NCBI GenBank assembly: GCA_045605345.1
Contig: JAZUPT010000013.1
Span: 802-64,801 of the forward strand
DNA from: Candidatus Spyradenecus sp.
GTDB taxonomy: Bacteria > Verrucomicrobiota > Kiritimatiellia > RFP12 > DVOR01
Length of the DNA: 64,000 nucleotides
Reading direction: 5' to 3'
The notes below the pieces were generated by a model that had not been told where the DNA came from, ran no database searches, and worked only from the letters and a program-made list of their open reading frames with translations. Made by a program: the position numbers and the translations under genes. Positions 2,395 to 39,006 of the stretch are shown here, piece after piece. Positions within the stretch are counted from its first letter, which is position 1; each line of letters starts with the position of its first letter.

Positions 2395-3537
2395 ATGGAA
2401 ACACAACCGACAGAAGATTACATCATTCCAGATGAAGATACTACATTTAGTTTATTGCCTGATGGGAGAGAAGTGACATTTCCGGATTTGGGCGGGTTGC
2501 AAAACCATGTGCAAGAAGAGATTGCAGCATGGACTAATGTGGAAAATACGATTGCGGATAGATATAAAACGGTTTTGAGTAAACTTGAGAATGTTACCAA
2601 AGAAGCAAAAGATGGTCGTATTGAACTAGGCGCATTGTCTGAAGTTAAGAAGCTTTTGCAAGAATGGGCGGTTAATACGAATGGAATTAATTCATGTGTC
2701 GATTCTCATTCGCGGCTTGGACTGTATATTAAAGAATTAAAGGGGCGAAAGTTACAGGGACCTGTGTTTCGAGATTTTTGTTTGTTGGCAATGCTCGTTC
2801 TTGGATATCCGCTTCCTCAAATAAGATTTAATTCCCAAGTGTTTCCATTAGCGATTGAGGCAGCTAAAATTGCTAAATATTTTGCGTGTCCGGAAGATCT
2901 TACAGAGAAGATCAATGATTATAAGAGACGTATAGAAGAATTGACTGATTCAGCAGAAGGAATTAGTAGAGATTATGAACTTCGGAAATCACAGTTTGAA
3001 GAAAAGATAAGTATAGCGGAACATAAAATGGCGGCATTGGAAGATGCCTATTCAAAGAAGTTGCAATTAGAGGGACCTGCTCAACACTGGAAGAATCTTT
3101 CAAGGTTTTATTTGGGTTGGGGTTGGGGATTGTTAACTTTGTCATTAGTGTTAGGTGGTGTTGCAATAGCCGCCTTGATTTGGTTGTTAGTTCAGGCTGA
3201 TACAATAGTGATTTTTAACGAGGATAAGCTCAGTTTGTCGACAATTAGAGCGAGCCTTATTTTGATCGCCGCAACATCAATGGCTGGGTATCTATTGCAT
3301 TTATTTACCAAGTTGGCAATGAGTTGTTTTCATCTTTCGCGGGACTACCGTGAACGCTTTCAATTGACGAATGTGTTTTTGGCACTTTTACGTGATGGGG
3401 ATGTGAAATGCGATGACCAGGTTAAGCAGATAGTTATGCAGGCGCTTTTCAGCCGATCGGATACTGGGCTATTGAAAGGTGAACATTCCTTTAAGATGCC
3501 GGGTGTAGCAGATTTGGTAAGGAAAGAAGAGTCGTAA
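2395..3537 (+). CDS. membrane protein: ~240-aa soluble N-terminal region plus 2-3 C-terminal TM helices, function unknown
   Basis: ATG is preceded by GAAGGAAAAA. Hydrophobic segments GWGWGLLTLSLVLGGVAIAALIWLLV and ASLILIAATSMAGYLLHLF. A coiled-coil-like stretch lies before the TM region. I recognised no enzymatic motif. Confidence 0.5.
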   Translation: METQPTEDYIIPDEDTTFSLLPDGREVTFPDLGGLQNHVQEEIAAWTNVENTIADRYKTVLSKLENVTKEAKDGRIELGALSEVKKLLQEWAVNTNGINSCVDSHSRLGLYIKELKGRKLQGPVFRDFCLLAMLVLGYPLPQIRFNSQVFPLAIEAAKIAKYFACPEDLTEKINDYKRRIEELTDSAEGISRDYELRKSQFEEKISIAEHKMAALEDAYSKKLQLEGPAQHWKNLSRFYLGWGWGLLTLSLVLGGVAIAALIWLLVQADTIVIFNEDKLSLSTIRASLILIAATSMAGYLLHLFTKLAMSCFHLSRDYRERFQLTNVFLALLRDGDVKCDDQVKQIVMQALFSRSDTGLLKGEHSFKMPGVADLVRKEES

Positions 3538-4022
3538 TGGATGAAACAAAGAAAACGTCGGTTATGAAAACGACCTTTAAATTCAAGCCCAAAGCGGGCT
3601 ATGTGTATGTTGTTACAAACGAATGCCTAAAGCTTGTAAAGGCGAAGGGTGTTTTTAGGGGTAAGATGGTTAAGCCTGTGAAGATTGGCAATGCGAAGGA
3701 TTTTACGAGTCGTCTGGGATCACTGAATACGGCGGTCTATGAGAACTTTGATTTTCATTTAGGTATAAAGACTGATGATGTTGTTGGATTGGAAGGCATT
3801 ATCCACACAGCTTTGCAGGATTATAGGATTTACACGAGAGATGGTGATGCGACGGAATTCTTTGCATGTCCCTTGGATGAGGTTGTTGGCAGAATCAAAA
3901 ATCTTATCGTGCGCGGGCACAAGGTGGATGTTGAAGAATACAAAGGCGGCAAGGTGGTCGGGCGTTCGGGCGCAAAGATTCATGCTTTCCATCAAGATTT
4001 ACATTCCATCGGCGTTGAATAA
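3537..4022 (+). CDS. T5orf172 (GIY-YIG superfamily) domain protein
   Basis: The ATG overlaps the previous stop (TAATG). GYVYVVTNE...VKIGNAKDFTSRLGSLNT...LEGIIHTALQDYRI...ATEFFACPLDEVV matches the T5orf172/MUG113 pattern (GyvYv..n...vKIG.t.d...R...l......lE..lH..l...r....EfF). Confidence 0.6.
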   Translation: MDETKKTSVMKTTFKFKPKAGYVYVVTNECLKLVKAKGVFRGKMVKPVKIGNAKDFTSRLGSLNTAVYENFDFHLGIKTDDVVGLEGIIHTALQDYRIYTRDGDATEFFACPLDEVVGRIKNLIVRGHKVDVEEYKGGKVVGRSGAKIHAFHQDLHSIGVE

Positions 4023-4153
4023 TTTTTCGCATTGCGTAGTCAATACGCACTCGTTTTTTGGTATCCTTATTCACGTTAGCATTCCTCTTTTGATTGTTTT
4101 TTTGTTCAACTAAAATCATAGCGGATTTGCTGACTTTTTTCATTTTGGCGCGC

Positions 4154-4169
4154 CGCCCCCCGGGGGGCG
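4154..4169. repeat. perfect 16-bp GC palindrome CGCCCCCCGGGGGGCG at the AT-rich/GC-normal composition boundary
   Basis: Read directly. It sits exactly where the AT-rich left block ends. No T-run follows on either strand, so it is not a canonical intrinsic terminator. Confidence 0.6.
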
Positions 4170-4188
4170 TAAGGTGACAGTTCTTCTT

Positions 4189-4262
4189 CTTTCCTTTCTG
4201 ACATGCCTTCCTCTGAGCGGGTCTCTTTTTAGCCCCGCGGTTATATTGTGCAATATTCCGGG
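4189..4262 (+). promoter_or_regulatory. conserved ~70-nt intergenic motif, copy A (second copy at 58897-58967)
   Basis: CTTTCCTTTCTGACAtgCCTTCCTCTGAGCGG-N14-CCCGCGGTTAtATTGTGcAATATTCcGGG aligns almost base for base with 58897-58967. Both copies lie upstream of + strand genes for exported proteins. Confidence 0.5.
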
Positions 4263-4304
4263 AGGGAGAATGTTGATGAAGTGGTGTTAAGGTTTTAGAG
4301 GGTG

Positions 4305-4313
4305 TGTTATACT
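4305..4313 (+). promoter_or_regulatory. extended -10 promoter element TGTTATACT
   Basis: TGnTATACT lies 41 nt upstream of ATG 4354. The same element recurs upstream of tyrS, leuS, the PP-loop gene and others. Confidence 0.45.
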
Positions 4314-4353
4314 GTATTTATTCGCCATTTTATTAGGTAAGGAGGGGATTTGA

Positions 4354-5289
4354 ATGGTAAAGCTCATGTGCATCGTTTTGGGGGTGTTGTGTTGTTGGTC
4401 TCTTTGGGGGGCGGTGGCGGGTTTGTCTCCGGTGGCGCAACAGCATGCTAAGGTGTTGCAGGCGGCTTTTGAAAAGGGGAACCGTTGGGAGGCAGTATCG
4501 GAGGAGGATTTGCGGGAGTATGTGTTGCCTTTGACGTCTTTGGGGGAGGATGAGGTGGCGTGGTTGCCGGTGTTGCAACCGCTTGCACAGGAGTTTTCTG
4601 CCACGGCGAAGACACCATTAGAGGCGGCGATGTTGATTAATCGTCATCTTTGGAAGCGGATTCAGGTGATTTATTCAACGAAACGTGAGAAGGCAAATCA
4701 GGATCCGTTGCATTCGATTCGGTTGGGCCTTGCTTCGTGTTCGGGGCTTTCTATTCTTTTAGTGGATGCGTGCAGGAGCATTGGTATTCCGGCGCGTGTG
4801 GTGGGATGCGTGTGGAAGTTGAAGCCGGGGAATCACAGTTGGGTAGAGGTGAAGAGCGGTGGTAAGTGGTATCCGCTGGGGGCGTTTGAGGATGTGCCAC
4901 CAGATCAATTGTGGTTTTTGTCAGATGCGGCGGCGGCGGATGGCACAGATCTGCGTTATGCTATCTATGCGGCGCGAGCTACGTCGGATGGGACGCGCTT
5001 TTTTGGTTGGGACGTGCCTGCAGAGAATGTGACGGCGCACTATGTGAAGTCGAAGCCCGCCACCGAGGGATGCCGCATTTTCTACGCGGTGGAACGTCAT
5101 GGTGCGCGTGTAGCGGAACCGTTTAGCGTGAATGGCGTGACTTATTATTCGCCGGGTCCACTTCAGGATATGAATGATTATGCAGAGATTGTTTTGCCCG
5201 CACCGGGTCCTTTTGAGGTGCAGATGCAGGGGAAAGTCTATCGTTACGTGGGGCAGAATAATCAAATTATTGTGGAGCAATTACCATGA
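4354..5289 (+). CDS. transglutaminase-like superfamily protein, exported/lipoprotein-like
   Basis: Strong SD (AAGGAGG) a few nt upstream. N-terminal MVKLMCIVLGVLCCWSLWG. Transglutaminase core pattern LGLASCSGLSILLVDACRSIGIPARVVGC...GNHSWVEV. Confidence 0.7.
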   Translation: MVKLMCIVLGVLCCWSLWGAVAGLSPVAQQHAKVLQAAFEKGNRWEAVSEEDLREYVLPLTSLGEDEVAWLPVLQPLAQEFSATAKTPLEAAMLINRHLWKRIQVIYSTKREKANQDPLHSIRLGLASCSGLSILLVDACRSIGIPARVVGCVWKLKPGNHSWVEVKSGGKWYPLGAFEDVPPDQLWFLSDAAAADGTDLRYAIYAARATSDGTRFFGWDVPAENVTAHYVKSKPATEGCRIFYAVERHGARVAEPFSVNGVTYYSPGPLQDMNDYAEIVLPAPGPFEVQMQGKVYRYVGQNNQIIVEQLP

Positions 5290-6653
5290 GTTCTGCGGAG
5301 AAGAGCAAGTTTGAATTTACGCCGTGGAATGCGACGAAGTTCTTTTTCCCATTGTGTATTCAGGCGGCGAGTCAGTCTTTGACGTATCCGCTCGTGGGGA
5401 TTGTGGTGGCGCATGGTCAGGGTGGCTCTGCGGAGTACGCGGCATTTGCGCAGGGCTTGATGATTATGTTCTTCTTGGGCACGTTAGGGTATGGCCTTGT
5501 GACCACGGGGATGGTCTATGCAAAGAACCGCATTGGTTATCTGCGCTTTGCGCGGGTGAACTTGATGATTCTCTTACTGGAGGTGGCGGTTCAGATTATT
5601 TTGGCTCTACCAGGGGTGGCACCGCTCGTCTTTGGGAAGTTATTGGGACTTCAGGGGGCGCAATTTGAGGTGGCGCGTTGGTCAATGTTGTGGGCGATGC
5701 CTGCGCAAATTGGGTTTATGCTTCGCAATGTGCCGCAGGTGGTGCTCTATAACGAACACGAGACAGGGATTGCAAATGCGGCAACGATTTTACGTATTGT
5801 GATTACGGCGATTGCGGCGCCAATCTTTTATTGGTGTGGGTTGGTCGGATGGCAATGGGGATGCGTCTGCTTGAGTTTCCCAGTTTTGCTTGAAGCGGCA
5901 ACGATGAAGTGGGTGGCACGCCCTTATGTGCAGCGGTTGCCACGTCGCCCCTCCACGGAGGTGCGTGCGAGCACGGGAACCATCTTTCTCTTCAATATTC
6001 CGCTTTCGTTGGGTGGGATGTTCTTAATGTTTGCGATTTTTATGTTGAATGCGATTATCAACCGTGTGCCGCAGGGACCAGAGATGTTGGCCGTGCATTT
6101 GGTGGCGGTGGGATTGATTAATCCATTGTCCTATGGCGCCCTGCGCAATCAGGCGGTGGCGATTGGCTTCCCGCAACGTGATGCTCGCGATCAACGCACG
6201 CTTTGTTTTGCCCTTGTGAGTGGCATCTGCCTCTCACTCTTTCTCTTAGGGGTGCAGATTCCTTTTGTCTCGGAGTGGTATTTTAGCGAGATGCAGAATC
6301 TGAATGCGTGGCAGGTGCCCTTGGCACGGAATGCGCTCTGGGTGGCAATGCTCTTTCCGGTGTTGCAAGCCCTGCGTGGACATGCAGAGGGTTTGGCCGC
6401 CTTTCGCAAACGTCCGAATGCAGTATTGGCGGGGCAGGCGGTTTTCTTTGGTGTTCTGGTGGCGATGTTGTTCATCCTCTTCTGTTTGGAAGTGCCAGGT
6501 TATCTAATGGGAATTTTGTCGTTGTGCGCGGCATCGGCATCGTCTTTTGTTACGATTCGCGTGGGATTGGCATTGGCTCGCTTGGAAGAGACTGAAGATT
6601 TTCCTGGTGCAGAGCGTGTAGCGCGGATACGTTCTTCCGAACGGCGCGTTTGA
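5286..6653 (+). CDS. polytopic membrane protein, MATE/MOP-exporter-like
   Basis: ATGA overlap with the upstream stop. About 12 hydrophobic segments. The N-terminal region (PLCIQAASQSLTYPLVGIVVAHGQGGSAEYAAFAQG) resembles MATE family openings. The assignment is weak. Confidence 0.45.
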   Translation: MSSAEKSKFEFTPWNATKFFFPLCIQAASQSLTYPLVGIVVAHGQGGSAEYAAFAQGLMIMFFLGTLGYGLVTTGMVYAKNRIGYLRFARVNLMILLLEVAVQIILALPGVAPLVFGKLLGLQGAQFEVARWSMLWAMPAQIGFMLRNVPQVVLYNEHETGIANAATILRIVITAIAAPIFYWCGLVGWQWGCVCLSFPVLLEAATMKWVARPYVQRLPRRPSTEVRASTGTIFLFNIPLSLGGMFLMFAIFMLNAIINRVPQGPEMLAVHLVAVGLINPLSYGALRNQAVAIGFPQRDARDQRTLCFALVSGICLSLFLLGVQIPFVSEWYFSEMQNLNAWQVPLARNALWVAMLFPVLQALRGHAEGLAAFRKRPNAVLAGQAVFFGVLVAMLFILFCLEVPGYLMGILSLCAASASSFVTIRVGLALARLEETEDFPGAERVARIRSSERRV

Positions 6654-6679
6654 GTTGAGATGGATTGATGGAGAATAGG

Positions 6680-7921
6680 ATGGTATTACCTGAATTACTT
6701 GCACCTGCGGGTGACCGCGCTTGTTTTCATGCGGCATTAGAACATGGCGCTGATGCGGTTTATATCGGCATTGGCCGCTTCAATATGCGGCGCAGTCAGG
6801 ATGGGTGTTTGCACTTCAATCAGATCCCTGGCATGGTGAAAGCGGCGCACGAAAAAGGTGCCAAACTCTACGTGACGCTCAATACCATTGTCTACCAAGA
6901 GGAACTTGCCGAACTCGATCGGACGATTGCGCTCTTGAAGGCGGCCGAAGTGGATGCGGTGATTGCCTGTGACTGGGCGGTAATTCGCCGTGCAAAGGCG
7001 GCGGGTATCCCTGTGCATATCTCCACGCAGATGTCGGCCTCAAATGTGGAAGCGGTGAAGTTTTTGGCAGAGCAGGGCGCGGAACGCGTGGTGTTGGCGC
7101 GAGAGTGTTCTTTGGAAGATATTGCGATTATTGCCAAAGAGAGCGGTGTGCCGATTGAGGTCTTTGGACATGGTGCGCAGTGTGTAGCCACCAGTGGACG
7201 ATGCTTCCTCTCGCAATTGGCCTATGGGTGCTCCTCTTCGCGCGGTAAATGTCTGCAACCCTGCCGACGCCGTTATCATATCCGCGAAGTCTCTGATGGC
7301 GTGGAGGCGGGTGCTCATGCGGAATTTGAAGTTGGGACCAACTTCATCCTTTCGGCGAAAGATCTCTGCACGTTAGGGATGTTGCCAGAGTTGATTCAGG
7401 CTGGGGTGGCCTCTTTGAAGATTGAGGGGCGTGCGCGTAATCCTGAATACGTGGCGAATGTTGTCAAAGCCTATCGTATGGCCTTGGATGCGATCGCAGA
7501 GGGACGTTATGATGCGGCTTGTCAGGCGGAGTGTATGCGTTTGGTGGAGGCTGTCTATCATCGACCCTTCGCCGAAGGGTTGCTCCGTGGACGCCCAGGT
7601 CAATCGCAATTTACCGATTCGGATGCGAATTACGCCACGGAAAAGAAGCTTTACTTAGGCGTGATTCGGAATTACTATGCACGCCACAATGTGGCAGAAG
7701 TCTTGGTGCATGAGGGCATCTTGAAGCCAGGAATTCGCCTGGCCGTGCATGGTCCGAAGACGGGGGTGGTCGACTTTACGGTTGGGACCTTGCGCCAGGA
7801 TGATGAAACGCCCGCAGAAGTGCATCGTGGCGCGTGGGCAACCTTTGTGGTGCCCGAACGGGTTCGTCCTGGGGATAAGGTCTACTTTGTTGTGCCGGCG
7901 ACCCCCACCGCGCTCCGTTAA
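6680..7921 (+). CDS. peptidase U32 family protein (RlhA/TrhP-type)
   Basis: MVLPELLAPAGD...GADAVYIGIGRFNMR, EVFGHGAQCVATSGRCFLS and RGKCLQPCRRRY are typical U32 blocks. GGAG lies 5-6 nt before ATG 6680; the track's alternative starts are 6665 and 6668. Confidence 0.8.
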   Translation: MVLPELLAPAGDRACFHAALEHGADAVYIGIGRFNMRRSQDGCLHFNQIPGMVKAAHEKGAKLYVTLNTIVYQEELAELDRTIALLKAAEVDAVIACDWAVIRRAKAAGIPVHISTQMSASNVEAVKFLAEQGAERVVLARECSLEDIAIIAKESGVPIEVFGHGAQCVATSGRCFLSQLAYGCSSSRGKCLQPCRRRYHIREVSDGVEAGAHAEFEVGTNFILSAKDLCTLGMLPELIQAGVASLKIEGRARNPEYVANVVKAYRMALDAIAEGRYDAACQAECMRLVEAVYHRPFAEGLLRGRPGQSQFTDSDANYATEKKLYLGVIRNYYARHNVAEVLVHEGILKPGIRLAVHGPKTGVVDFTVGTLRQDDETPAEVHRGAWATFVVPERVRPGDKVYFVVPATPTALR

Positions 7922-20598: not shown

Positions 20599-20842
20599 CT
20601 ACGATAAAGGAGGAGCTTCGCAGAGGGTAGGGCGGCGTCGCCCCCACGTCTCTCTTGTCTTCTAATCACCCGCTATCCAGTGTGGTACCAAACGACGGGG
20701 ATGCTGCGCTCCCCGTACCCCTCGCACCCTTGCCTTTCTTCCTCTCTTTTCTCTCTTCAAAATCCCTTTAAAATCCCTTACGCAGGTGTGTCACTTTTTT
20801 GAAATTTTTAGCGAATTTTCGCCTGTTGAAAACTTTTTTGAG

Positions 20843-20862
20843 TTATCAACAAGTTATCAACA
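20843..20862 (+). promoter_or_regulatory. tandem DnaA-box-like 9-mers TTATCAACA-ag-TTATCAACA (third copy at 21050-21058)
   Basis: Each 9-mer differs from the TTATCCACA consensus at one position. The same doublet plus singleton is present in copy 2 (37347-37366, 37554-37562). Confidence 0.3.
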
Positions 20863-21098
20863 ATACACGTTTTTTGACGCAGTTTTGGGAAAATTTTCTG
20901 GTGAAGCGATGGGTTTTCGGCGCTTTTGCTCGACTTTATTAGAAATGCATAACACATTGAAAAAGAAAGAGATAATGTTAAAACTGGGCGAAATTAACTC
21001 CGCTACAGTCGCTTCCTTGCGAAAAAAAGGGCATCAGGGGGAGGGAAAGTTATCAACAATTTGCCCGTTTTTTAGGGAAGTCTAAAGAAAATCTGGGT

Positions 21099-21160
21099 CA
21101 ATATGGGCGAAACTGAGTCGCAATATGGGCGAAATTGGGTACCCAAAAGAGGCGAAATTG
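21099..21160 (+). repeat. 22-bp periodic iterons CAATATGGGCGAAAYTG (2 full + 1 partial)
   Basis: 21099-21115, 21121-21137 and partial AGGCGAAATTG 21150-21160. An extra GGGCGAAATT lies near 20985. Confidence 0.6.
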
Positions 21161-21182
21161 CGACTCAATTTCGCCTCTTTTC
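21145..21182. terminator. terminator-like hairpin formed by the last iteron and its inverted copy
   Basis: aaaa-GAGGCGAAATT-gcgactc-AATTTCGCCTC-tttt; 11-bp stem flanked by an A-run and a T-run. Confidence 0.35.
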
Positions 21183-30930: not shown

Positions 30931-32097
30931 TTAAAGCGTTTTCACGAAACGCGCGATGCGCGTGACGGCTTCTTTGAGTTGCTCAAGTCCTGTGGCGTAA
31001 GAACAGCGCACAAAGCCTTCGCCGCAGGCGCCGAATGCCGTGCCCGGCACAACCGCCACATTCTCTGCATCCAAGAGGCGAACGGCAAATTCGCGCGAGG
31101 TCAAGCCGAATTTTGCAATTTGCGGGAAGGCATAGAATGCGCCCGCGGGGGTGTGCATCGGGATGCCCGCTTCCGTAAATGCGGCGCGCAGGAAGTTACG
31201 GCGCTGCTCATAAGCTTGCAACATCGGCTTCATGTCTTCTGCGGGGTGGCGCATCGCTTCAAGCGCAGCGTACTGCGACGTGGTCGGGGCGCACATGATT
31301 GCGTACTGGTGAATCTTCAAGATGGTGTCCATCATCCACTTCGGTGCGCAGACATAGGCCATGCGAAAACCCGTCATTGCCCACGATTTGGAGTAACCAT
31401 GGTGCAGAATCAGGCGGTCACGCAGTTCGGGAATTGACGCGAAGGAGACGTGCTTCTTGCCGCCCCATGTCATCTCTGCGTAGATCTCGTCCGAAATTAC
31501 AATCAGATTGTGGCGAATTGCAAAGGCAGCAATCGCCTCCACATCGGCGCGTTCAAGCACGGCGCCAGTGGGATTGTTGGGGAAGTTGAGCATCAAAGCC
31601 TTGGTGCGCGGGGTAACCTTGGCCTCCAAAGCTTCAATCGAGAGGCGGAAATTATCCTCTACACGTGTTTCCACCGGCACGGGCACGCCATGCGCCATGG
31701 CAATTTCTGGACCATAGCTCACGAAGCACGGTTCATGATAAAGCACTTCGTCGCCAGGATTGAGAATTGCGCGCAACGCGATATCCAAACCCTCCGAAGC
31801 ACCCACCGTAATGAGGATTTCCGTGGCGGGGTCATAGGTGCCACCAAAGTTGGTGTGGACGTAGTCGGCAATTGCGGTGCGCAGTTCAATCAATCCCGCA
31901 TTGCCAGTGTAGTGCGTGCACCCCTTGTCCAAAGACTTGGCTGCCGCTTCACGAATGTGCCAGGGCGAATCAAAGTCGGGCTCGCCGATGGCCAGGGAGA
32001 TCACCCCAGTGCGGGTGCTCACGATGTCAAAGAATTCGCGAATGCCACTTTTGGGCAAGTCAACGATATGACGGGCTAAATAGGCGTGTGGATCCAT
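30931..32097 (-). CDS. PLP-dependent aminotransferase, class I/II (AspC-like)
   Basis: NFPNNPTG and YSKSWAMTGFRMAY (PLP-lysine block); 388 aa. Confidence 0.8.
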   Translation of the reverse strand: MDPHAYLARHIVDLPKSGIREFFDIVSTRTGVISLAIGEPDFDSPWHIREAAAKSLDKGCTHYTGNAGLIELRTAIADYVHTNFGGTYDPATEILITVGASEGLDIALRAILNPGDEVLYHEPCFVSYGPEIAMAHGVPVPVETRVEDNFRLSIEALEAKVTPRTKALMLNFPNNPTGAVLERADVEAIAAFAIRHNLIVISDEIYAEMTWGGKKHVSFASIPELRDRLILHHGYSKSWAMTGFRMAYVCAPKWMMDTILKIHQYAIMCAPTTSQYAALEAMRHPAEDMKPMLQAYEQRRNFLRAAFTEAGIPMHTPAGAFYAFPQIAKFGLTSREFAVRLLDAENVAVVPGTAFGACGEGFVRCSYATGLEQLKEAVTRIARFVKTL

Positions 32098-32099
32098 AA

Positions 32100-32582
32100 T
32101 TAGGGGCTCACGACAAGGCGATTGTCATCCTGCGGCTTGGCCATCAGGACGTTGTTTTGCTTGTAAGTTTTCAGACGGAAATGGGTGGCGGTGGAGACGA
32201 TGCCACGAATCGTGGAGAGCTTTTCGCTCACGAAGCGTGCCACGGAGAGAAGGGTCTTGCCACTGACAAAGAGGAGAAGGTCATACGCGCCACTCATCAA
32301 ATAGACCGCTTCAGTCTCTTCAAAACGGCTCACCTCTTCGGCGATGCGGTTGAAGCCACCATCGCGTTCAGGCGTGACACGCACTTCAATCACGGCAGTC
32401 ACGGAGTCATGCGGCACGAGGTCTTCATTGATAATCGCCTGCCAACCGCGAATAATGCCTTCATCTTCCAAACGTGCGATGGCGTTTTCCACCTCGGCCA
32501 CTTCCACCCCTAAGAGGCGGGCCATATTCTCGGGCGACTCCTTCGCATTGGAACGCAGGATATCCAAAAGACTCTCTACCAT
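32100..32582 (-). CDS. Lrp/AsnC family transcriptional regulator
   Basis: N-terminal wHTH (LLDILRSNAKESPENMARLLGVEVAEVENAIARLEDEGIIRGW) plus a C-terminal RAM-type domain. Confidence 0.8.
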   Translation of the reverse strand: MVESLLDILRSNAKESPENMARLLGVEVAEVENAIARLEDEGIIRGWQAIINEDLVPHDSVTAVIEVRVTPERDGGFNRIAEEVSRFEETEAVYLMSGAYDLLLFVSGKTLLSVARFVSEKLSTIRGIVSTATHFRLKTYKQNNVLMAKPQDDNRLVVSP

Positions 32583-32649
32583 GATTTGACTCCTTCCCTA
32601 AAAAATCAAAAAAGTCCGCAGAGACGCGCTCTACAGACTTCTTTCGGTA

Positions 32650-32723
32650 TGGTTGCCTCACAAGGATTCGAACCTTGACAAACTGATCCAGAGTCAGTTG
32701 TGCTACCGTTACACAATGAGGCA
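32650..32723 (-). tRNA. tRNA-Gln (anticodon CUG), CCA encoded
   Basis: The reverse complement folds by hand as a cloverleaf. Acceptor UGCCUCA/UGAGGCA, D stem GUGU/GCAC, anticodon stem ACUGA/UCAGU with loop CU-CUG-GA, T arm CAAGG-UUCGAAU-CCUUG, discriminator A plus CCA. Confidence 0.9.
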
Positions 32724-32823
32724 ATAAACGTAAAACGCGACACATTATGCCAAACGTCATTCTCAAATGCAAGCACTTTTTAAAAAATTTTTACTTTTAG
32801 GTCGTATTATTTTTCTTATTAAG

Positions 32824-33106
32824 TTTCATTTCTTCGGCCCTTCGTACTATTTTCTAAAATTTTCTAAACAATTCTAAAAAGTTTCGGACAAAAATTGTAC
32901 TATTTAAGATTTCTTCCCGAGAGGAAATTTCCCCTTAAAATAATTTGCACGGAAAGATTTTGTACTGTTTAAATTTTGCACGGATAGTACAAATTGTACT
33001 GATTTTAAGCTTAAAATTGCCGGCCATAAAATATTCAAGATAAGTTATTGTAAATGAATAAGTTATGGTGCGGTAAATATAGTACAAAGTATTGAAGAAA
33101 TGAAAT
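32824..33106 (+). repeat. MITE-like repeat R1, copy a (283 bp)
   Basis: 12/12 terminal inverted repeats TTTCATTTCTTC/GAAGAAATGAAA. Colinear with R1b and R1c, with an internal ~65-bp duplication. Contains the palindrome AGTACAA-A-TTGTACT. Confidence 0.75.
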
Positions 33107-33112
33107 AACTTA

Positions 33113-33287
33113 TATGAATTTATCCCACTTTTGTACTAATTTTGGAGAAATACAATAGTACAAAATGCATAGCCCCATACTAATTTTTTGGAATGTAATT
33201 TAGCCCCGAAATAAGCTATTAGAAATCAATTACATATGAATGCAAATGCGGCTCCCCAAAATAGTACAATCATCTGAAAAAATGATA
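33113..33287 (+). repeat. repeat R2, copy a (175 bp)
   Basis: Near-identical to 34022-34197 (ATATGAATTTATCCC...GTACAATCATCTGAAAAAATGATA). Confidence 0.8.
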
Positions 33288-33348
33288 CAATTACATATGA
33301 ATGCAAAACGGCTCCCCAAAAATGGTACAATCATCTGAAAAAATGATA
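33227..33348 (+). repeat. 61-bp tandem duplication of the 3' end of R2a
   Basis: Units 33227-33287 and 33288-33348 (CAATTACATATGAATGCAAA..GGCTCCCCAAAA..GTACAATCATCTGAAAAAATGATA) differ at only a few positions. Confidence 0.85.
33323..33331 (+). promoter_or_regulatory. extended -10 element TGGTACAAT for ORF 33370
   Basis: Lies in the second 61-bp unit, 39 nt before ATG 33370, which has SD AAGGAG at 33357-33362. The first unit has TAGTACAAT instead. Confidence 0.45.
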
Positions 33349-33369
33349 GATTAAGAAAGGAGCGGGAGC

Positions 33370-33888
33370 ATGAAGAAGAAAATGCTATTTGCTGTGCTTG
33401 CGGGGGTGATGATTGCCATAGGATGGTTGGTCGTTGCCAAGATGAACAAGAATCCAACCAGTGAAAAGGAGAAGAAAATGAACGAGGAAAGACCTCAACT
33501 GTCAAAAGAGTGTTCCAGATTGCTTGACGTCTCGATAGAAAGCAATGTTCCTATCGTCCTTGACATGGGCGAGGACTTCTGTCCGACGCTTTATGTGACC
33601 GAAGGCGAGCGCGGCACGTTCTACAATCTGGCTGGTTTTGCGTCTATTGAGGAGCTTCGCGCCAAATCAAAGGAGGTGTTGGCTAACATGGCCTCCGTCA
33701 AGGCCTATCTCCTGGCATACGCACCGGCCTGTGAGATGGGGGGCGCCCGCAAGGTTCTGCTAGTCATGGAAACTGCTGACAGGAGCGATGCCAATGCGAC
33801 AGTGGTGGCGGTTGTCTGCGATGTCGATAAGAAACAGTCTGAGGATGGGCTGAAGCTGCTGCCCCAGGCCGATTCGCTCTTCAAGTAG
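33370..33888 (+). CDS. hypothetical exported/membrane-anchored protein (172 aa)
   Basis: Good SD. N-terminal MKKKMLFAVLAGVMIAIGWLVVA hydrophobic anchor. I recognised no motif. Confidence 0.5.
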   Translation: MKKKMLFAVLAGVMIAIGWLVVAKMNKNPTSEKEKKMNEERPQLSKECSRLLDVSIESNVPIVLDMGEDFCPTLYVTEGERGTFYNLAGFASIEELRAKSKEVLANMASVKAYLLAYAPACEMGGARKVLLVMETADRSDANATVVAVVCDVDKKQSEDGLKLLPQADSLFK

Positions 33889-33947
33889 TGCAAGTTATGG
33901 TGATGTGCAGACGATGGATGTTGAAGCGCAAGAAAGGAGCTAACGAA

Positions 33948-34013
33948 ATGAATACGCGGATGATGTTTGCGCGGGTCGTCGCGGGAGATTTTAGACAGGA
34001 TTTACAAGATTGA
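33948..34013 (+). CDS. 21-codon ORF MNTRMMFARVVAGDFRQDLQD with strong SD (speculative)
   Basis: AAAGGAG lies 8 nt upstream of ATG 33948, with TGA at 34011-34013. There is no other support. Confidence 0.15.
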   Translation: MNTRMMFARVVAGDFRQDLQD

Positions 34014-34021
34014 CAGGATTA

Positions 34022-34197
34022 ATATGAATTTATCCCGCTTTTGTACTAATTTTAGAGAAATGCAATAGTACAAAATGCATAACCTCATACTAATTTTTTG
34101 GAATGCAATTTAGCCCCGAAATAAGCTATTAGAAATCAATTACATATGAATGCAAATGCGGCTCCCCAAAATAGTACAATCATCTGAAAAAATGATA
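34022..34197 (+). repeat. repeat R2, copy b (176 bp)
   Basis: Near-identical to 33113-33287. Confidence 0.8.
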
Positions 34198-34248
34198 AAC
34201 TTAAGTTGGTTTCAACAATGATCTCATTCTTATTTAACTTTGATATCA

Positions 34249-34466
34249 TTTCACTTCTTCAGAGCTTCGTACTATTTTCTAGAATTTTCTAGATAGGTCT
34301 AAAAAGTCCCCGGCCAAAAATTGTACTGTTTAAATTTTGCATGAATCGTACAAGTTGTACTGTTTTTGCTCCTAATGCTACCAGCCTAAAATATTCAAAA
34401 TGAGTTATTGTAAATGAATAAGTTATGGCTCTGCAAATAGAGTACAAAGTATTGAAGAAGTGAAAT
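34249..34466 (+). repeat. MITE-like repeat R1, copy b (218 bp)
   Basis: Termini TTTCACTTCTTC/GAAGAAGTGAAA are again 12/12 complementary. Relative to copy a, the T>C change in the left arm is matched by A>G in the right arm. Confidence 0.75.
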
Positions 34467-34566
34467 CTTTTGTCAAATATTTCACTTTAAATCCATTGCA
34501 ATGGCGAACCATGTAGTATTCCCCATAGTGATTCTTGCAAGTGTTTAGATTAAAGCGGGGATTGAG

Positions 34567-35802
34567 TTATTCCTTCCAGCCTAAAATTCTATAGAATTTT
34601 GGAAGCTTCCCAGTGTCAGCGAAGTTGATATATGGTGTGGCGACTGACGCAGGAATCGGCGTTTCTTCACAAGGACATTTTGCGAGTTCTGAACCTTGGG
34701 CCAACATAAGACACTTTCCTCGTGGACGGCGGAGGGTTTGCTGCATCTCTGTAAGCGCATGAGAGAGCGAGGTTTGTTGTAAATTGCCAAATGAAATTGG
34801 GGTGAAATCGCATGGTTGTAGATTGCCAAGCATATCTACATAAAAATGCTGAAAACCTGCGCCACATCCATACCGATCTGCATCTTCAATGAAGGCGAAA
34901 GAGGAGACTTTGGTTGCAGAGGGGATGTGATTCGAAGTGCAGTGAATAGATTTTAGCCAATCATGCTGTTGGGCAGAAATCCTCCAAGCATCTTCACCTA
35001 AAAGTCTACCACACGGCATTGGTTCTAAAAGGCGAACCTCATGCACGCCTAATGCTTTAGTAAAGTCGAGATAGCGCTGCATCCAAGAGGGGTCGCAACG
35101 ATCTTTTGTGGCAACGATTTGGGTCATGGTGTAAAGACCCGCTCGTTGAAGGCAATCAATCGCCTTGAGCGCAGTTTTGAAGGCGCCCTTGATGCCTCTT
35201 CCTCGGTCATGTTCGTCTGCATCAAAAGAGTCTAAACTGACGGCGGCGCCGAAGAGCCCTGCAGCTTTTAATGCGCGTGCTCGATCCTCGGTAAGACCAT
35301 CTCCTGCGGTAAAAAGAAATGTGATTGAGCGTTCATCTACACTTGCGATAAGTTCTTCTAACCGTTCACATAAGAGGGGCTCACCACCTGTAAAACCAAG
35401 AATGGCAACGCCGAGGTCTTGCGCTTCACGAAGGATTCGCTTCCAAACGTCTACCGTTAAGGCTTTGCCTTTTCGCCCCACCTTGCTACAGTGAGGGCAA
35501 TTATAACGGCACGCATCGGTAATTGCGAAGTAGGCTGAGACTGGAGTAATGAGTTTGGTGGACTGTTGAGCATCGCGAAGCTGGGCAACTTTACTTGCGA
35601 GTCCTGCAAAAGCGGGAGAGGGGAAGGGCGGCAGAAAAGAATTGACGACATAACGCCCTTCGTGTTTGACAAGTTTTTCGGAGGAGAGGAGGCGATTCAT
35701 AGCAAGAAGTTGTCGCCATGAAAGGTGTTGATAGCCTTCGTAACGCAGGGTTTTACTCAATGCTAAAAGGCGTTTCATGCCTACGACATATTGCGGTTTC
35801 AT
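34567..35802 (-). CDS. radical SAM enzyme with C-terminal SPASM/twitch-like Cys cluster
   Basis: CxxxCxxC in ITDACRYNCPHCSKVG, and GGEPLL. C-terminal CGAGFQHFYVDMLGNLQPC plus GKC...AKCPC. I prefer ATG 35802 (MKPQYVV), which forms an ATGA overlap with the methyltransferase stop; the track start at 35823 is TTG. Confidence 0.75.
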   Translation of the reverse strand: MKPQYVVGMKRLLALSKTLRYEGYQHLSWRQLLAMNRLLSSEKLVKHEGRYVVNSFLPPFPSPAFAGLASKVAQLRDAQQSTKLITPVSAYFAITDACRYNCPHCSKVGRKGKALTVDVWKRILREAQDLGVAILGFTGGEPLLCERLEELIASVDERSITFLFTAGDGLTEDRARALKAAGLFGAAVSLDSFDADEHDRGRGIKGAFKTALKAIDCLQRAGLYTMTQIVATKDRCDPSWMQRYLDFTKALGVHEVRLLEPMPCGRLLGEDAWRISAQQHDWLKSIHCTSNHIPSATKVSSFAFIEDADRYGCGAGFQHFYVDMLGNLQPCDFTPISFGNLQQTSLSHALTEMQQTLRRPRGKCLMLAQGSELAKCPCEETPIPASVATPYINFADTGKLPKFYRILGWKE

Positions 35803-36680
35803 GGCTTTACTCCTTTTGCCCAAGCGTAACGATGCTCGATTTTCAAACCATCAGGTTTAAGATCGCGTTCGATAAATTGAATGAATGCAGTATCACATGC
35901 ATCACGCATTGTGGGAGCCATCGCTTGGTCAAATCCAGCAGATACACCTGTTTGTAATGACCACTCTAAAACTGCTCGCCCATTCGCAAAAGGCAATGCT
36001 TCGGCGCCCTCTCCATTACAAATCTTGACAAACCCACAGCACTGCAAAAGGCGTTGCAGCGAATGCGCATTTTTGGGAAGATTGAGGTGTAAATCCATAA
36101 GCGCCATGAGCGCATGCGGATATTCCATTGCCACACGAAAGGCGGCATTGCGTATTTGCAACCACGTGTCTCGCTTATTTTCAAGAATTAAGAAGAGCCC
36201 ACCTTGTTTTAACTTACGATAAACGAGGCGTGTTAATCGTTTTGGTTTAACATAACCAATAGCCCATGCACAACTGACGATATCGAGAGAATTGTCGGGT
36301 AACTGAGCAAGTCTTTCTTCCATTTCGCCATGCAATAACTGTGCTGTTGGACAGCGTTTGGAAGCCTCGCGCAACATCCCTGCAGATTGGTCGATGCCGA
36401 TTAACTCTGCTTCAGGGTAATGCTCTGCCCAAGTTGCCAAAAGAGCACCCGTTCCACAAGCGAGATCAAGGATACGAGCCTTTTGGGGAAGGTCTTCGAC
36501 GCATGCAATGAGAGCATCTGAATGTGCTTTGGCATGAGCCGAAAAATGGGTGTCGTAGCCTACACTAATTCGGTCATAATCAGCCGCAATTGCCGATTGA
36601 GAAACATAGGTCTTTTTTAATAAAAGCGTACAGACGCGAAGAAGTGTTCGAATTGGTTTTGCACCCATAAAGAGAGTCAT
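35799..36680 (-). CDS. class I SAM-dependent methyltransferase
   Basis: Motif I ILDLACGTGALL, post-I IGIDQS, and LDIVSCAWAIGYV; 293 aa. Confidence 0.75.
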   Translation of the reverse strand: MTLFMGAKPIRTLLRVCTLLLKKTYVSQSAIAADYDRISVGYDTHFSAHAKAHSDALIACVEDLPQKARILDLACGTGALLATWAEHYPEAELIGIDQSAGMLREASKRCPTAQLLHGEMEERLAQLPDNSLDIVSCAWAIGYVKPKRLTRLVYRKLKQGGLFLILENKRDTWLQIRNAAFRVAMEYPHALMALMDLHLNLPKNAHSLQRLLQCCGFVKICNGEGAEALPFANGRAVLEWSLQTGVSAGFDQAMAPTMRDACDTAFIQFIERDLKPDGLKIEHRYAWAKGVKP

Positions 36681-36697
36681 CCTCGTTGCAATTTCAA

Positions 36698-36931
36698 TTA
36701 TATTCTATAGGATTTCGAAAATTGGTGCAAGACGTGAGCATATAGCAATAATGCAGCTGATGGTTTAGTACAACTTTGGTGGTAGATGTGTACAAAAGGG
36801 AAGGGCGTAATAGCATGCAAAAAGGTGATAGTGGCGGAGAGGCGTAATGTTTTACAGAGGTTTTTACTATGAGTAGCTATTTCGCTTTTACCTATTTGGG
36901 TAGTCTTGAAGAATAAACCCAATGATTTCAC
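36698..36931 (-). CDS. 77-codon ORF immediately upstream of the methyltransferase (speculative; possible precursor/leader)
   Basis: Co-directional and ends 18 nt before ATG 36680. The GTG start lies inside the left terminus of R1c with GAAGGG 8 nt upstream. AT-rich, with no internal Met and no recognisable motif. Confidence 0.2.
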   Translation of the reverse strand: MKSLGLFFKTTQIGKSEIATHSKNLCKTLRLSATITFLHAITPFPFVHIYHQSCTKPSAALLLYAHVLHQFSKSYRI

Positions 36932-37141
36932 TTTTTCGGCCCTTCGTACTATTTTCTAAAGTTTTCTAAATAGGGCTAAAAAGTTTCGGACAAAAATTGT
37001 ACTATTTAAATTCTGTATGAATGGTACAGACTGTACTGATTTTAAGCCAAATGCTACCAGCCTAAAATATTCAAAATGAGTTATTGTAAATGAATAACTT
37101 ACGGCACGGCAAATATAGTACAAAGTATTGAAGAAATGAAA
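36926..37141 (+). repeat. MITE-like repeat R1, copy c (216 bp)
   Basis: Termini are TTTCACTTTTTC/GAAGAAATGAAA (10/12 complementary). Colinear with R1a and R1b. Confidence 0.75.
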
Positions 37142-37601
37142 TATTAAGGTAAAAGAAAGAGAAAAGTGAGGGGGAAGAAGTGAGGAGAAAGGAGAGAGGG
37201 CGCGGGGAGGAGAGGTGGGGGCGGCGTCGCCCCCACGTCATCCCATCTATCCCTTTTCTCCTTTTTCCCCTTCAAAATCCCTTACGCAGGTTTATCACTT
37301 TTTTGAAAATTTTAGCGAATTTTCGCCTGTTGAAAACTTTTTTGAGTTATCAACAAGTTATCAACAATACACGTTTTTCAATGCAGTTTTTTGAAAATCC
37401 TTCGGCGAATCGGCCCATTTTAGGCACTTTTGCTCAACTTTGCTAAAACTGCATAACTCCTTGAGAAATAAGGAGATAAAGCAAAAATAGGGGTAAATCA
37501 ACTCCGCTACAGCGGCTTCCTTGCGAAAATTTGGGGTAGAAGTGGTAGAAAAGTTATCAACAATTGGGAGCTTTTTGGGGAAAGCTAAAGGAATTCCGGG
37601 T

Positions 37602-37662
37602 CAATATGGGCGAAATTGAGTTGCAATATGGGCGAAATTGATGAGTAAAATGGGCGAAATTG
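37602..37662 (+). repeat. 22/23-bp periodic iterons CAATATGGGCGAAATTG (3 copies)
   Basis: Read directly. The last copy pairs with TCGCCCAT (37674-37681), followed by TTTT. Confidence 0.6.
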
Positions 37663-37760
37663 GGTAGGCAAAGTCGCCCATTTTCCCAAGGGAAAACCGC
37701 CTACTTTCCGCGGGATTTTAACTGACTTGCCTCAGCGGAGTTGACGACGTTTCTCCGTTT

Positions 37761-37792
37761 TGCTACACTTTTAGTGTGCGTAGAGAGAAGGG
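37761..37792 (+). promoter_or_regulatory. 32-nt conserved motif TGCTACACT-TTT-AGTGTGCGTAGAGAGAAGGG, copy b
   Basis: See 21258-21289. Lies 159 nt upstream of the argC ATG. Confidence 0.5.
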
Positions 37793-37906
37793 ATTTTTGT
37801 CTAAGATGAAGAATCGTACGCTGAGGTGAAAAGGGGGGCGCCATCTCGAATTGCGAACATTTCAGAAGGGGAGCGTATTTTGGGTCTATATTTATTAATG
37901 TAAATG

Positions 37907-37915
37907 TGATACAAT
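37907..37915 (+). promoter_or_regulatory. extended -10 element TGATACAAT (argC proximal promoter)
   Basis: Lies 36 nt upstream of ATG 37951 and is followed by TCGCGCG, as in the tyrS and leuS elements. Confidence 0.45.
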
Positions 37916-37950
37916 TCGCGCGATTAATTTTATTGGAAAGAAGTTCCCTT

Positions 37951-39006
37951 ATGGTGAAAGTTAAGATTGTCGGCGCGACCGGTTACGGCGGCATTGGTTT
38001 GATTGAATTGCTCGGGCGTCACCCGGAAGCAGAAATTACGGCTTTGGTGGCGCGTGAGGATGTTGGTAAGCGCGTCTCTGACATTTATCCGCATTTGGCG
38101 GGGTTCTGTGATTTGCCGATTTTGGACGCGGCGGATCCTCAGGCACAGGCTCCTGCAGACATTGTGGTGTTTTCAACGCCTGACCGCGTGGGCATGTTTG
38201 AGGCGCCGGGTGTTTTGAGCCAGGGCGCAAAGGTTTTAGACTTCTCGGGTGACTTCCGCTTCACGACACAAGAAGCCTATGCGGATTACGCCACGCGTCA
38301 TGGGAAAGAACCCGAACATGCGTCTCCAGATCTCTTGGGGCAGAATGCGTATGGTTTGGCAGAGTTGCACCGTGCAGAGATTGCTGCGGCACCTGTGGTG
38401 GGTAATCCGGGGTGTTTTGCGTGTAGTTGCATTCTTGGCTTAGCACCTGCGGCGAAGGCGCGTTTGTTCAACCCCTACAGCGTGATTTGCGACTGTAAGA
38501 CGGGGGTCTCGGGCGCAGGCAAGAAGTTGGCCGCGACCTTCCACTATCCGGCGCGCTATGAGAACATGAATGCGTATAAGCTCGCTGGCCATCAGCACGT
38601 GTGCGAGGTGGAACGTGAGCTCTCCTTGCAGTATGGCGCAGATGTCCGCTTGACCTTTACGGCGCATGTGTTGCCGCTTTGCCGCGGCATTATGAGCACG
38701 CTGTACGCTCAGATGGATGCAGTGCACACGGAAGAGGAATTGGTGGAACTCTACAAGGCCTTCTACAAGGATTCTCCGTTTGTGCGCGTGTACGGTTCGA
38801 AGGCGGCGATTGGCACCAATAGCGTGCAGCGCACGAACTTCTGCAACTTGGTGGTTAGCGTGGATCCTCGCGTCAATCGTCTGCGCGTGGTCTCTTACAT
38901 CGACAACTTGATGAAGGGGCAGGCAGGCTCTGCAGTGCAGAATATCAACCTGATGAGCGGCTTGCCTGAAGCAACTGGCCTGCTCTATTCTGGTTTGTAT
39001 CCGTAA
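37951..39006 (+). CDS. argC: N-acetyl-gamma-glutamyl-phosphate reductase
   Basis: MVKVKIVGATGYGG Rossmann start and active-site GNPGCFACSCILGLAP. The track start at 37906 lies inside the promoter element. Confidence 0.9.
   Translation: MVKVKIVGATGYGGIGLIELLGRHPEAEITALVAREDVGKRVSDIYPHLAGFCDLPILDAADPQAQAPADIVVFSTPDRVGMFEAPGVLSQGAKVLDFSGDFRFTTQEAYADYATRHGKEPEHASPDLLGQNAYGLAELHRAEIAAAPVVGNPGCFACSCILGLAPAAKARLFNPYSVICDCKTGVSGAGKKLAATFHYPARYENMNAYKLAGHQHVCEVERELSLQYGADVRLTFTAHVLPLCRGIMSTLYAQMDAVHTEEELVELYKAFYKDSPFVRVYGSKAAIGTNSVQRTNFCNLVVSVDPRVNRLRVVSYIDNLMKGQAGSAVQNINLMSGLPEATGLLYSGLYP

Follow-up and report, generated by a model that had tools for sequence, protein, structure and literature searches.

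How a DNA island with transposon-like ends came to hold its cargo is the question raised by a locus of Candidatus Spyradenecus sp. (Verrucomicrobiota; Kiritimatiellia). The window, that is the whole stretch of 64,000 nucleotides (nt) analysed here (GenBank assembly GCA_045605345.1, contig JAZUPT010000013.1, positions 802 to 64,801 of the forward strand), contains a 4.3-kb island in the intergenic spacer between a tRNA-Gln(CUG) gene and argC. It is made up of three copies of a short repeat, R1 (R1a, R1b and R1c), two copies of a second repeat, R2 (R2a and R2b), and two cargo modules: module 1, a gene for an exported or membrane-anchored protein with a mini open reading frame (ORF), and the radical SAM module, a radical S-adenosylmethionine (SAM) and methyltransferase gene pair. 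The initial annotation had regarded the island as a non-autonomous composite transposon that delivered both cargoes. An insertion bounded by a dispersed non-coding inverted-repeat element is borne out by the comparisons described below; delivery of the 4.3-kb unit in a single step is not. It is probable that R1 ends were inserted once, with a 7-bp duplication, and that cassettes were then gained, lost and swapped by recombination between direct R1 copies.

Insertion and allelic series at the tRNA-Gln/argC site

The left terminus of the island, the 12-bp sequence TTTCATTTCTTC (32824-32835), has its exact reverse complement at 37130-37141, and the heptamer TATTAAG lies directly outside both, exactly as annotated. 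On the left the terminus is that of R1a and on the right that of R1c; neither is a property of the 4.3-kb unit. The modular, AT-rich interior (R1a, R2a with a 61-bp duplication, the exported-protein gene, the mini-ORF, R2b, R1b, the radical SAM and methyltransferase genes and R1c) was likewise found as described, with a G+C content of 28-35% at its lowest, in the repeats, against ~55% in the flanks. The cassettes run in opposite orientations. The flanks of the internal copy R1b carry no matching duplication, and no transposase or integrase domain was found in the interior ORFs scanned against Pfam; both points had been anticipated.

By itself the heptamer is not rare: 64 kb would be expected to hold 3.55 copies, and 7 are present. 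Of mismatched left/right flank pairs taken from 36 other R1 copies, only ~0.6% show an in-register match of at least 7 bp directly at both ends. The flanks of these 36 copies all differ and TATTAAG is thus not part of R1, a possibility that had been raised. Nor is the duplication lost in relatives: both heptamers are kept in four other assembled strains (L053, L054, L068 and L069), and the left one in L053, L054, L036, L067, L068, L069, L074 and L075. Contigs encoding the exact ArgC or aminotransferase proteins of the window were the source of several strains of the species. Every comparison is based on metagenome assemblies from short reads, in which repeats cause breaks and may give rise to chimeras. 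Duplications are also seen elsewhere. In-register flanking repeats of 6-8 bp (TCATCC, GTACTA, GCATGG and TAAAGATT) surround 4 of the 36 solo R1 copies, where ~0.3 would be expected from mismatched flank pairs, and R1 arrays around cargo in L021 and L034 have 8-bp direct repeats (CCGCACTG and CCGTATTG, respectively) on their outer flanks only.

An empty site, the most important piece of evidence, was found in L072 (DRR848731). This contig of the same species encodes the exact aminotransferase protein of the window and is 98.3% identical in the left flank; in it the flank on the tRNA side is joined colinearly to that on the argC side, with a single heptamer and without R1 (...GGTCTCCTTATTTTTTTACTGAGGTAAATGAAAGAG...). 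The region is thus a true insertion with a 7-bp duplication, and the signature of transposition read from its ends is upheld. The heptamer of L072 is TACTGAG, with two differences from TATTAAG, and the surrounding 45 bp are unusually diverged; L072 is therefore an old or imported uninserted allele and not an excision product. L027 (JAZRAG) was also considered as an empty site and rejected, being an 83% identical relative with a synteny break at the tRNA and unconvincing right-flank homology.

The measured distance of 93-100 nt from the 5' side of tRNA-Gln agrees with the ~95 nt given before, and a tRNA-targeted genomic island that a tyrosine or serine integrase had inserted would account for this neighbourhood. 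Gene order also breaks at this tRNA between species, since folD and not argC follows tRNA-Gln in the more distant L027 (2036-3260). We give this explanation next to no credence: the heptamer lies outside the tRNA and does not belong to its sequence, the interior ORFs yielded no integrase domain, and the ends belong to a dispersed repeat found at many non-tRNA sites. The proximity of the tRNA looks incidental, as the island is on the 5' side and no tRNA-derived repeat is involved.

Five arrangements were observed at this one site. Besides the empty allele of L072, the commonest one, represented by four assemblies (L053/L070, L068, L069 and L074), consists of TATTAAG, R1, the radical SAM and methyltransferase genes, R1c and TATTAAG, and lacks module 1 and one R1; in L074 the contig stops before R1c and the right end is out of view. 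The three-R1 form is present in the window and in L054. L036 (JAFYWN01; flank 96% identical) shares the left flank, R1a, R1b and the radical SAM junction with the window and has two Sel1-repeat exported-protein genes between R1a and R1b. In L059 only the last 16 bp of R1c are left, and the flank lacks 8 bp. The content between the outer R1 ends thus differs between strains by whole modules, each bounded by R1, and the 4.3-kb unit is, within this series, just one combination of modules among several, all at the same old insertion site.

This bears directly on the proposal that the whole array from R1a to R1c moved in one step as a non-autonomous composite transposon with both cargoes. The perfect inverted termini and the duplication flank exactly the 4.3-kb unit, and an empty site exists, as that proposal would have it. 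It is contradicted by the allelic series: the commonest allele holds the radical SAM module alone, and L036 has different module-1 genes with the same outer left flank and the same R1b/radical SAM junction. In addition, the unit with both cargoes was found at no other site and only the radical SAM module recurs elsewhere. Joint delivery is thereby largely refuted and must be considered very improbable.

Some details of these alleles were noted in passing. In L059 the R1c remnant reads TATTGAAGAAATGAAA (2657-2700), and the missing 8 bp of flank (TATTAAGG) begin exactly at the R1 terminus; such a deletion, starting where the element ends, may have been left by transposase cleavage. The same contig opens (1-266) with an inverted duplicate of its R1 end, probably a palindromic contig-end artefact. 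L073 (reverse strand, 1-30) ceases to match the window 23 bp ahead of the point of R1 insertion (...TTTTACTTTTAG continuing as CGTGATGTGTCATAGTAATG...) and then ends; it is a further spacer allele, seen only up to the contig end.

The radical SAM module at a second R1-marked locus

The radical SAM protein has its closest homologue, at 99% identity, on a 60-kb contig, L051 (ERZ27297638), in a different neighbourhood, with homoserine dehydrogenase and aspartate kinase on one side and a Crp-like regulator, prismane and FeoB on the other. There too the module is flanked by R1. The DNA of the two loci is 96-100% identical per 50-bp bin from ~34401 to 36950 of the window and ~78-88% identical over most of the remaining R1b and R1c sequence; overall, the cargo is ~98% identical and the R1 copies only ~85%. 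The inner junctions (R1 followed by TCTTTTG..., and ...AAACCCAATGA followed by R1) are common to both loci, the inner flanks of the module reading TCTTTTG...CCCAATGA, whereas the outer flanks are unrelated. No outer duplication is present at the L051 locus. In another metagenome-assembled genome (MAG), L038, the flanks of L051 have a single R1 between them; solo and array R1 alleles exist at one site.

Since the cargo is so much more alike than the R1 copies, the breakpoints lie in or at R1, and R1 was not inherited with the cargo. Such a pattern is expected from recombination between R1 copies and not from recent movement of a fixed composite. At the junction with R1c, the leader upstream of the operon (97-99% identical in L051, L052 and L059) ends in AAACCCAATGA, one half of a palindromic minisatellite unit of 22 bp. 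The remaining half (CAATGGATTTGA...) is found in L051 beyond the equivalent of R1c; this R1 copy has its own near-perfect duplication (CAATGA/CAATGG) and interrupts a minisatellite that continues on its right. The window retains only the left half of this target beside R1c. One module has been transferred between R1-marked loci with breakpoints in R1. Mosaic structure is evident in the repeats as well. In L053 the left R1 combines R1a-type, L036-R1b-type and R1b-type segments, R1b is a mosaic relative to the R1 copies of other strains, and adjacent R1 pairs are direct in ~9 cases against 1 full inverted pair.

At the tRNA-Gln/argC site, R1-type ends entered by a transposition-like event that duplicated 7 bp. 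In the sequence of events that we favour, a single R1, or a minimal unit of R1, cargo and R1, would have inserted once by means of a transposase acting in trans. The R1 copies would then have served as portable homology at which modules could be added, lost and exchanged: gained by integration of R1-bearing circles or by double crossover with incoming R1-flanked DNA, and lost by deletion between direct R1 repeats. In L036 the Sel1 cargo is bracketed by CAAATG at the inner R1 ends. Integration of an R1-bearing circle would be expected to leave this pattern, which may be taken as an indirect hint of circular intermediates of element plus cargo. The outcome of these steps would be an array of R1 copies in the same orientation, with the duplication on the outermost flanks only and with unrelated flanks at internal R1 ends. 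The cargo is passive in the process.

Several observations weigh against this scheme. Recombination is read from mosaics in assemblies that are possibly chimeric at repeats, and the lower identity of R1 could also stem from gene conversion among R1 copies after composite transposition. Most solo copies (28 of 36) have no duplication, and duplications of 6 to 8 bp would be unusual for one transposase. As to the enzyme for the transposition step, no autonomous element with R1 ends, and no insertion sequence (IS) or transposase with matching ends as had been sought, was found in more than 60 loci scanned for R1-type ends bracketing anything but R1 or R1 arrays. Among the assembled alleles there is no verified solo R1 with TATTAAG on both sides. 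L067 (JAEIGA01; flank 95.7% identical), the one contig returned by a metagenome scan with a conserved 25-mer of the tRNA flank, carries at the site an R1 that matches R1c exactly over its right 125 bp. A solo-R1 allele would look like this, but L067 does not prove one, since the contig stops within the repeat.

In all occupied alleles that are fully assembled, TATTAAG flanks on both sides at least the unit of R1, the radical SAM and methyltransferase genes and R1. This speaks for a second explanation, in which this minimal unit transposed into TATTAAG as a compound transposon bounded by miniature transposable elements that have inverted repeats (MITEs), with a transposase, supplied in trans, acting on the outer ends, and the exported-protein and Sel1 modules came later, between R1 copies. 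The outer-flank duplications of the L021 and L034 arrays would fit it, as would R1c, whose inner flank is still the donor-side AAACCCAATGA while its outer flank is new, and MITE-bounded composites that move cargo are documented (TIME-COMPs, PMC13367494). It does not sit well with the ~85% identity of R1 copies around ~98% identical cargo, with the missing outer duplication at L051, whose empty equivalent L038 is a solo R1, or with the failure to find a transposase with matching ends. Founding by this compound transposon is possible and, on balance, rather unlikely.

The R1 and R2 repeat families and related systems

The distribution of R1 was examined by a scan with a 19-mer invariant in R1a, R1b and R1c, with an exact match required and one genome taken per species. 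It returned 49 DNA stretches. Six Kiritimatiellae/Candidatus Spyradenecus MAGs from animal guts account for 38 of these, three of them holding 14, 11 and 8 (lower bounds, an exact match being needed); the other 11, in unrelated taxa, are chance matches without similarity beyond the 19-mer. It was possible to delimit 36 full copies, usually 283 bp long like R1a. The 216-217-bp form lacks a 65-bp segment lying between TTGTACTRTTTAA direct repeats. This indel is polymorphic between near-identical strains, the segment being present in R1a of the window and absent from that of L054, and the use of the short and long types as a marker of ancestry was dropped. L019 and L028, two contigs of one MAG, match at 100% across R1 and both 200-bp flanks and may be duplicated contigs.

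R1 is non-coding (216-283 bp; the ORFs overlapping it have only 44-55 codons). R1a, R1b and R1c each have inverted arms of ~30 nt that are 80% complementary, and the ends, which start TTTCAYTTCTTC... / TTTCAYTTCTTCGGCC, are conserved in the 36 other copies. The signal for R1 as a structured single strand is weak (z = -1.8). No match to R1 was obtained in Rfam or, by BLAST, in a phage and a plasmid collection; two 19-mer matches in IMG/VR, of ~20 nt each, are chance only. An Rfam E-value search of 32000-38000 returned only the tRNA, plus noise on a GA/TC-rich hairpin, and promoter and terminator counts at the region do not exceed those of shuffled sequence. When 181 ORFs from ~300 kb around R1 copies were compared all against all, no multicopy protein emerged; MAGs often lack IS copies, and such an absence carries little weight. 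A literature check, not exhaustive, found no matching described family. Being short and non-coding, with terminal inverted repeats, duplications, an empty site and many dispersed copies, R1 resembles a MITE family.

R2 is related to R1, with which it has in common an R1-like right end and the GTAC motif; R2-like copies also occur in L019/L028 and in L034. A 5-bp duplication, AACTT, around R2a...R2b was considered and is not claimed, as ACTTAAG also follows the R2 copy in L019 and may belong to R2 itself. GTAC-core motifs (AATAGTACAA / TTGTACTATTT) number 5-6 per R1 copy and 3-4 per R2 copy against 0.5-0.8 expected (6 against 0.8 in R1a), and the 2.1 kb of cargo coding sequence at 34567-36680 has 1 GTAC where 8 are expected. 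In the window as a whole, GTAC is ~twofold under-represented (1.75 per kb; a rough estimate from base composition), despite which it is ~eightfold enriched in R1 and R2. A restriction system specific for GTAC or a binding protein, or the two together, could underlie the pattern; the enrichment in a GTAC-poor genome points to a possible DNA-binding protein.

Spacer-less minisatellites of 22 bp (2-6 units, with palindromic cores of differing sequence) adjoin R1 copies in many Kiritimatiellae loci (Table 1), and the motif AAGGGCGAAAT is often found at array or R1 boundaries (L020, L032 and L044). In several loci R1 is inserted at the centre of such palindromic units; the L021 and L034 arrays each split the first unit, with the 8-bp duplication. 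The minisatellites lie outside R1 and look like preferred targets. The motif TTGAAACCCAATGG was tried as an extension of R1 and rejected: its central 8 bp are directly repeated and not inverted in L021 and L034, so that it is target sequence of the minisatellite unit.

These features invite the idea of a dedicated site, in which a putative site-specific recombinase or transposase would bind the AATAGTACAA / TTGTACTATTT motifs and the array would be an integron-like cassette platform and would not have arisen by general homologous recombination. The motifs are enriched in R1 and R2 and scarce in cargo coding sequence, the cassettes are bounded precisely by R1 ends, and R1 sits at the centre of minisatellite units. 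No recombinase gene was found in the island or within ~5 kb, however, and no multicopy protein near the 36 R1 copies; the crossovers appear to have occurred at various positions within R1, and neither solo copies with target duplications nor cassettes in opposite orientations are integron-like. A dedicated site is accordingly held to be quite improbable. A bolder form of the idea would make R1 and R2 docking sites of an unrecognised recombination system in gut Kiritimatiellae: a putative protein encoded elsewhere would bind AATAGTACAA/TTGTACTATTT, insert R1 at the centres of 22-bp palindromic minisatellite units and exchange R1-bounded cassettes between loci and strains. This is improbable; if true, it would amount to an integron-like platform built from MITE-like units, with exported or Sel1-type surface proteins and accessory enzymes as its cassettes.

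Among known systems, the island resembles the pseudo-compound transposons of IS26 (IS6 family; PMC7986276, PMC8722046) in its same-orientation arrays of an element interleaved with cargo, in a duplication on the outermost flanks only with none at internal copies, and in the gain and loss of element plus cargo, with alleles at one site that hold the element alone. The DDE transposase that carries out targeted conservative integration is encoded by IS26 itself, and the duplication of IS26 has a fixed length of 8 bp, whereas R1, of 216-283 bp, encodes nothing and has duplications of 6-8 bp; joining at R1 is most simply ascribed to host homologous recombination. As R1 encodes no transposase, the island is not of the IS26 type proper. 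To our knowledge, the ends of R1 (TTTCAYTTCTTC...) are unlike those of IS26.

Composites bounded by MITEs, such as TIME-COMPs, built from Tn3-derived miniature elements (TIMEs; PMC13367494), and the composites discussed for MITEAba12 (PMC6382973), are alike in that two non-autonomous inverted-repeat copies bracket cargo, with a target duplication around the whole and no transposase inside. For TIMEs the cognate transposon family, Tn3, is known, while no partner was found for R1. TIMEs generate duplications of 5 bp. The bracketing that defines a composite transposon, two copies of one element around cargo and one duplication outside, is present here. Movement as a unit with the bounding copies is not seen: the 4.3-kb unit was found nowhere else, the R1 copies of L051 are diverged and without an outer duplication, and, in distinction from TIME-COMPs, R1 is not co-inherited with cargo. 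BrickBuilt of Porphyromonas gingivalis (PMC4596501) is likewise a species-restricted, intergenic MITE-like element associated with a spacer-less minisatellite of 22-23 nt; there the minisatellite is inside the element, and with R1 the 22-bp arrays are outside it, seemingly as targets.

The region thus represents a new MITE-like family that forms recombination-driven cassette arrays, the underlying principle of which is already established; current understanding of mobile elements is not overturned. Such cassette reshuffling is known mainly from IS26 and antibiotic-resistance plasmids. R1 is an apparently undescribed repeat family in an uncultured, poorly studied gut lineage (Kiritimatiellae/Candidatus Spyradenecus), and the natural allelic series at one site gives an example of how repeats without a transposase can put together and reshuffle accessory genes in wild populations. 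For annotation, R1 copies mark strain-variable cassette sites, often with exported or repeat-rich proteins.

Cargo genes and the right-hand spacer

Table 1. Coordinates of features in the window and in related contigs (aa, amino acids).
Sequence	Feature	Position	Strand	Remarks
Window	tRNA-Gln(CUG)	32650-32723	minus	ARAGORN; Rfam tRNA, 63 bits; neighbour, outside the element
Window	Left TATTAAG	32817-32823		copy of the 7-bp target-site duplication, directly outside the left terminus
Window	R1a	32824-33105	plus	long-type R1, 282 bp; own inverted ends of ~30 nt
Window	R2a	33112-33350	plus	second repeat family; R1-like right end and GTAC motifs; start approximate
Window	61-bp tandem duplication	33227-33348		inside R2a
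Window	Exported or membrane-anchored protein gene	33370-33888	plus	172 aa; cargo module 1
Window	Mini-ORF and junction segment	33888-34022	plus	41 codons
Window	R2b	34022-34198	plus	direct repeat of R2a, 93% over 193 nt
Window	R1b	34249-34465	plus	short-type R1, 217 bp; orientation of R1a; no matching flank duplication
Window	Radical SAM/SPASM gene	34567-35802	minus	411 aa from the ATG at 35802
Window	Class I SAM-dependent methyltransferase gene	35799-36680	minus	293 aa
Window	Operon upstream leader	36681-36925	minus	holds most of a 77-codon ORF; ends in AAACCCAATGA
Window	R1c	36926-37141	plus	short-type R1, 216 bp; orientation of R1a; its right end is the right terminus of the island
Window	Right TATTAAG	37142-37148		copy of the 7-bp duplication
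Window	R5	37268-37685	plus	dispersed repeat, 420 bp, outside the island; 80% identical to 20764-21182, 16 kb upstream
L014	Minisatellite beside R1	1023-1151
L020	Minisatellite beside R1	3995-4124
L021	Minisatellite beside R1	2550-2621
L034	Minisatellite beside R1	4497-4589
L041	Minisatellite beside R1	5182-5271
L042	Minisatellite beside R1	4156-4248		further examples in other loci
L063/L064	Methyltransferase and radical SAM pair	3465-6994
L062	Methyltransferase and radical SAM pair	4104-6221
P0056	Methyltransferase and radical SAM pair			single protein
L055	Extra repeats right of the island	1-540
L059	Extra repeats right of the island	2720-2900
L072	Extra repeats right of the island	~60-290	reverse

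The radical SAM protein matches the Pfam families Radical_SAM (3.6e-19) and SPASM (3.8e-5), and the methyltransferase Methyltransf_25/11 (4e-17). The stop codon of the methyltransferase gene overlaps the start of the radical SAM gene as ATGA, and the two genes are translationally coupled. No NCBIfam model reaches its cut-off for the cargo proteins, and the closest solved structures to the radical SAM protein are only SkfB, PqqE and MoaA, with E-values of 1e-11 or weaker. The order and overlap of methyltransferase and radical SAM genes are conserved in Kiritimatiellae, and the pair is also found in distant phyla; a Desulfitobacterium locus adds to it another methyltransferase and an alpha/beta hydrolase, and in P0056, a homologue of 697 aa, the domains of both enzymes are found in one protein. 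The pair looks like an uncharacterised small pathway. The 77-codon ORF of the leader has no Pfam match and no support as a gene, and is probably non-coding.

The 172-aa protein has no match in Pfam or NCBIfam. Its homologues, 84-98% identical, occur only in related metagenomes, in clusters of gene pairs made of a mini-ORF and an exported-protein gene. The segment with the 172-aa gene and the mini-ORF is 91% identical in DNA to part of such clusters, in which a mini-ORF-type segment precedes each gene; 33931-34022 of the window matches several gene-start junctions in L079-L081, where gene callers place ORFs of 31-36 aa. Because of these matches, module 1, which is absent from the two-R1 strains, is seen as an excerpt of a larger paralogous cluster, bracketed by R2. 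The clusters themselves (for example L079, 338-5965) are tightly packed on the same strand, with ORFs of 31-36 codons and a conserved junction before larger hypothetical genes of 117, 390, 495, 180, 172, 123 and 205 aa, none of which has a Pfam match. Tandem paralogues are also present in L078 (4454-5513).

The spacer to the right of the island has repeats of its own. R5 adjoins the island and the target intergenic region is thus repeat-rich. Each R5 copy has three TTATCAACA boxes at equal spacing (TTATCMACA occurs 8 times in the window against 0.8 expected) and a tandem array of 22-bp units with GGGCGAAAT as their core, together with an inverted copy. In the R5 copy right of the island this array lies at 37602-37662, where its units read ATGGGCGAAATTG; in L055 (~880-960) and L059 (~3290-3370) they read ATCAGCGAAATTG, so that the units change together between strains. 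Such concerted change would fit binding sites co-evolving with a protein. ParB is encoded 1.4 kb downstream, and a ParA-like gene lies upstream.

Between the island and the R5 array, a long GA-rich/TC-rich inverted repeat occupies 37149-37291 of the window. The contig start of L055 (1-34) is Illumina adapter sequence (TACACTCTTTCCCTACACGACGCTCTTCCGATCT), an assembly artefact in the public record. In other strains the spot of the inverted repeat holds 190-500 bp of extra G+C-rich repeats with units such as GGGCAGGGGCTACGATAA (Table 1), and it is a second strain-variable hotspot in the tRNA-Gln/argC spacer.

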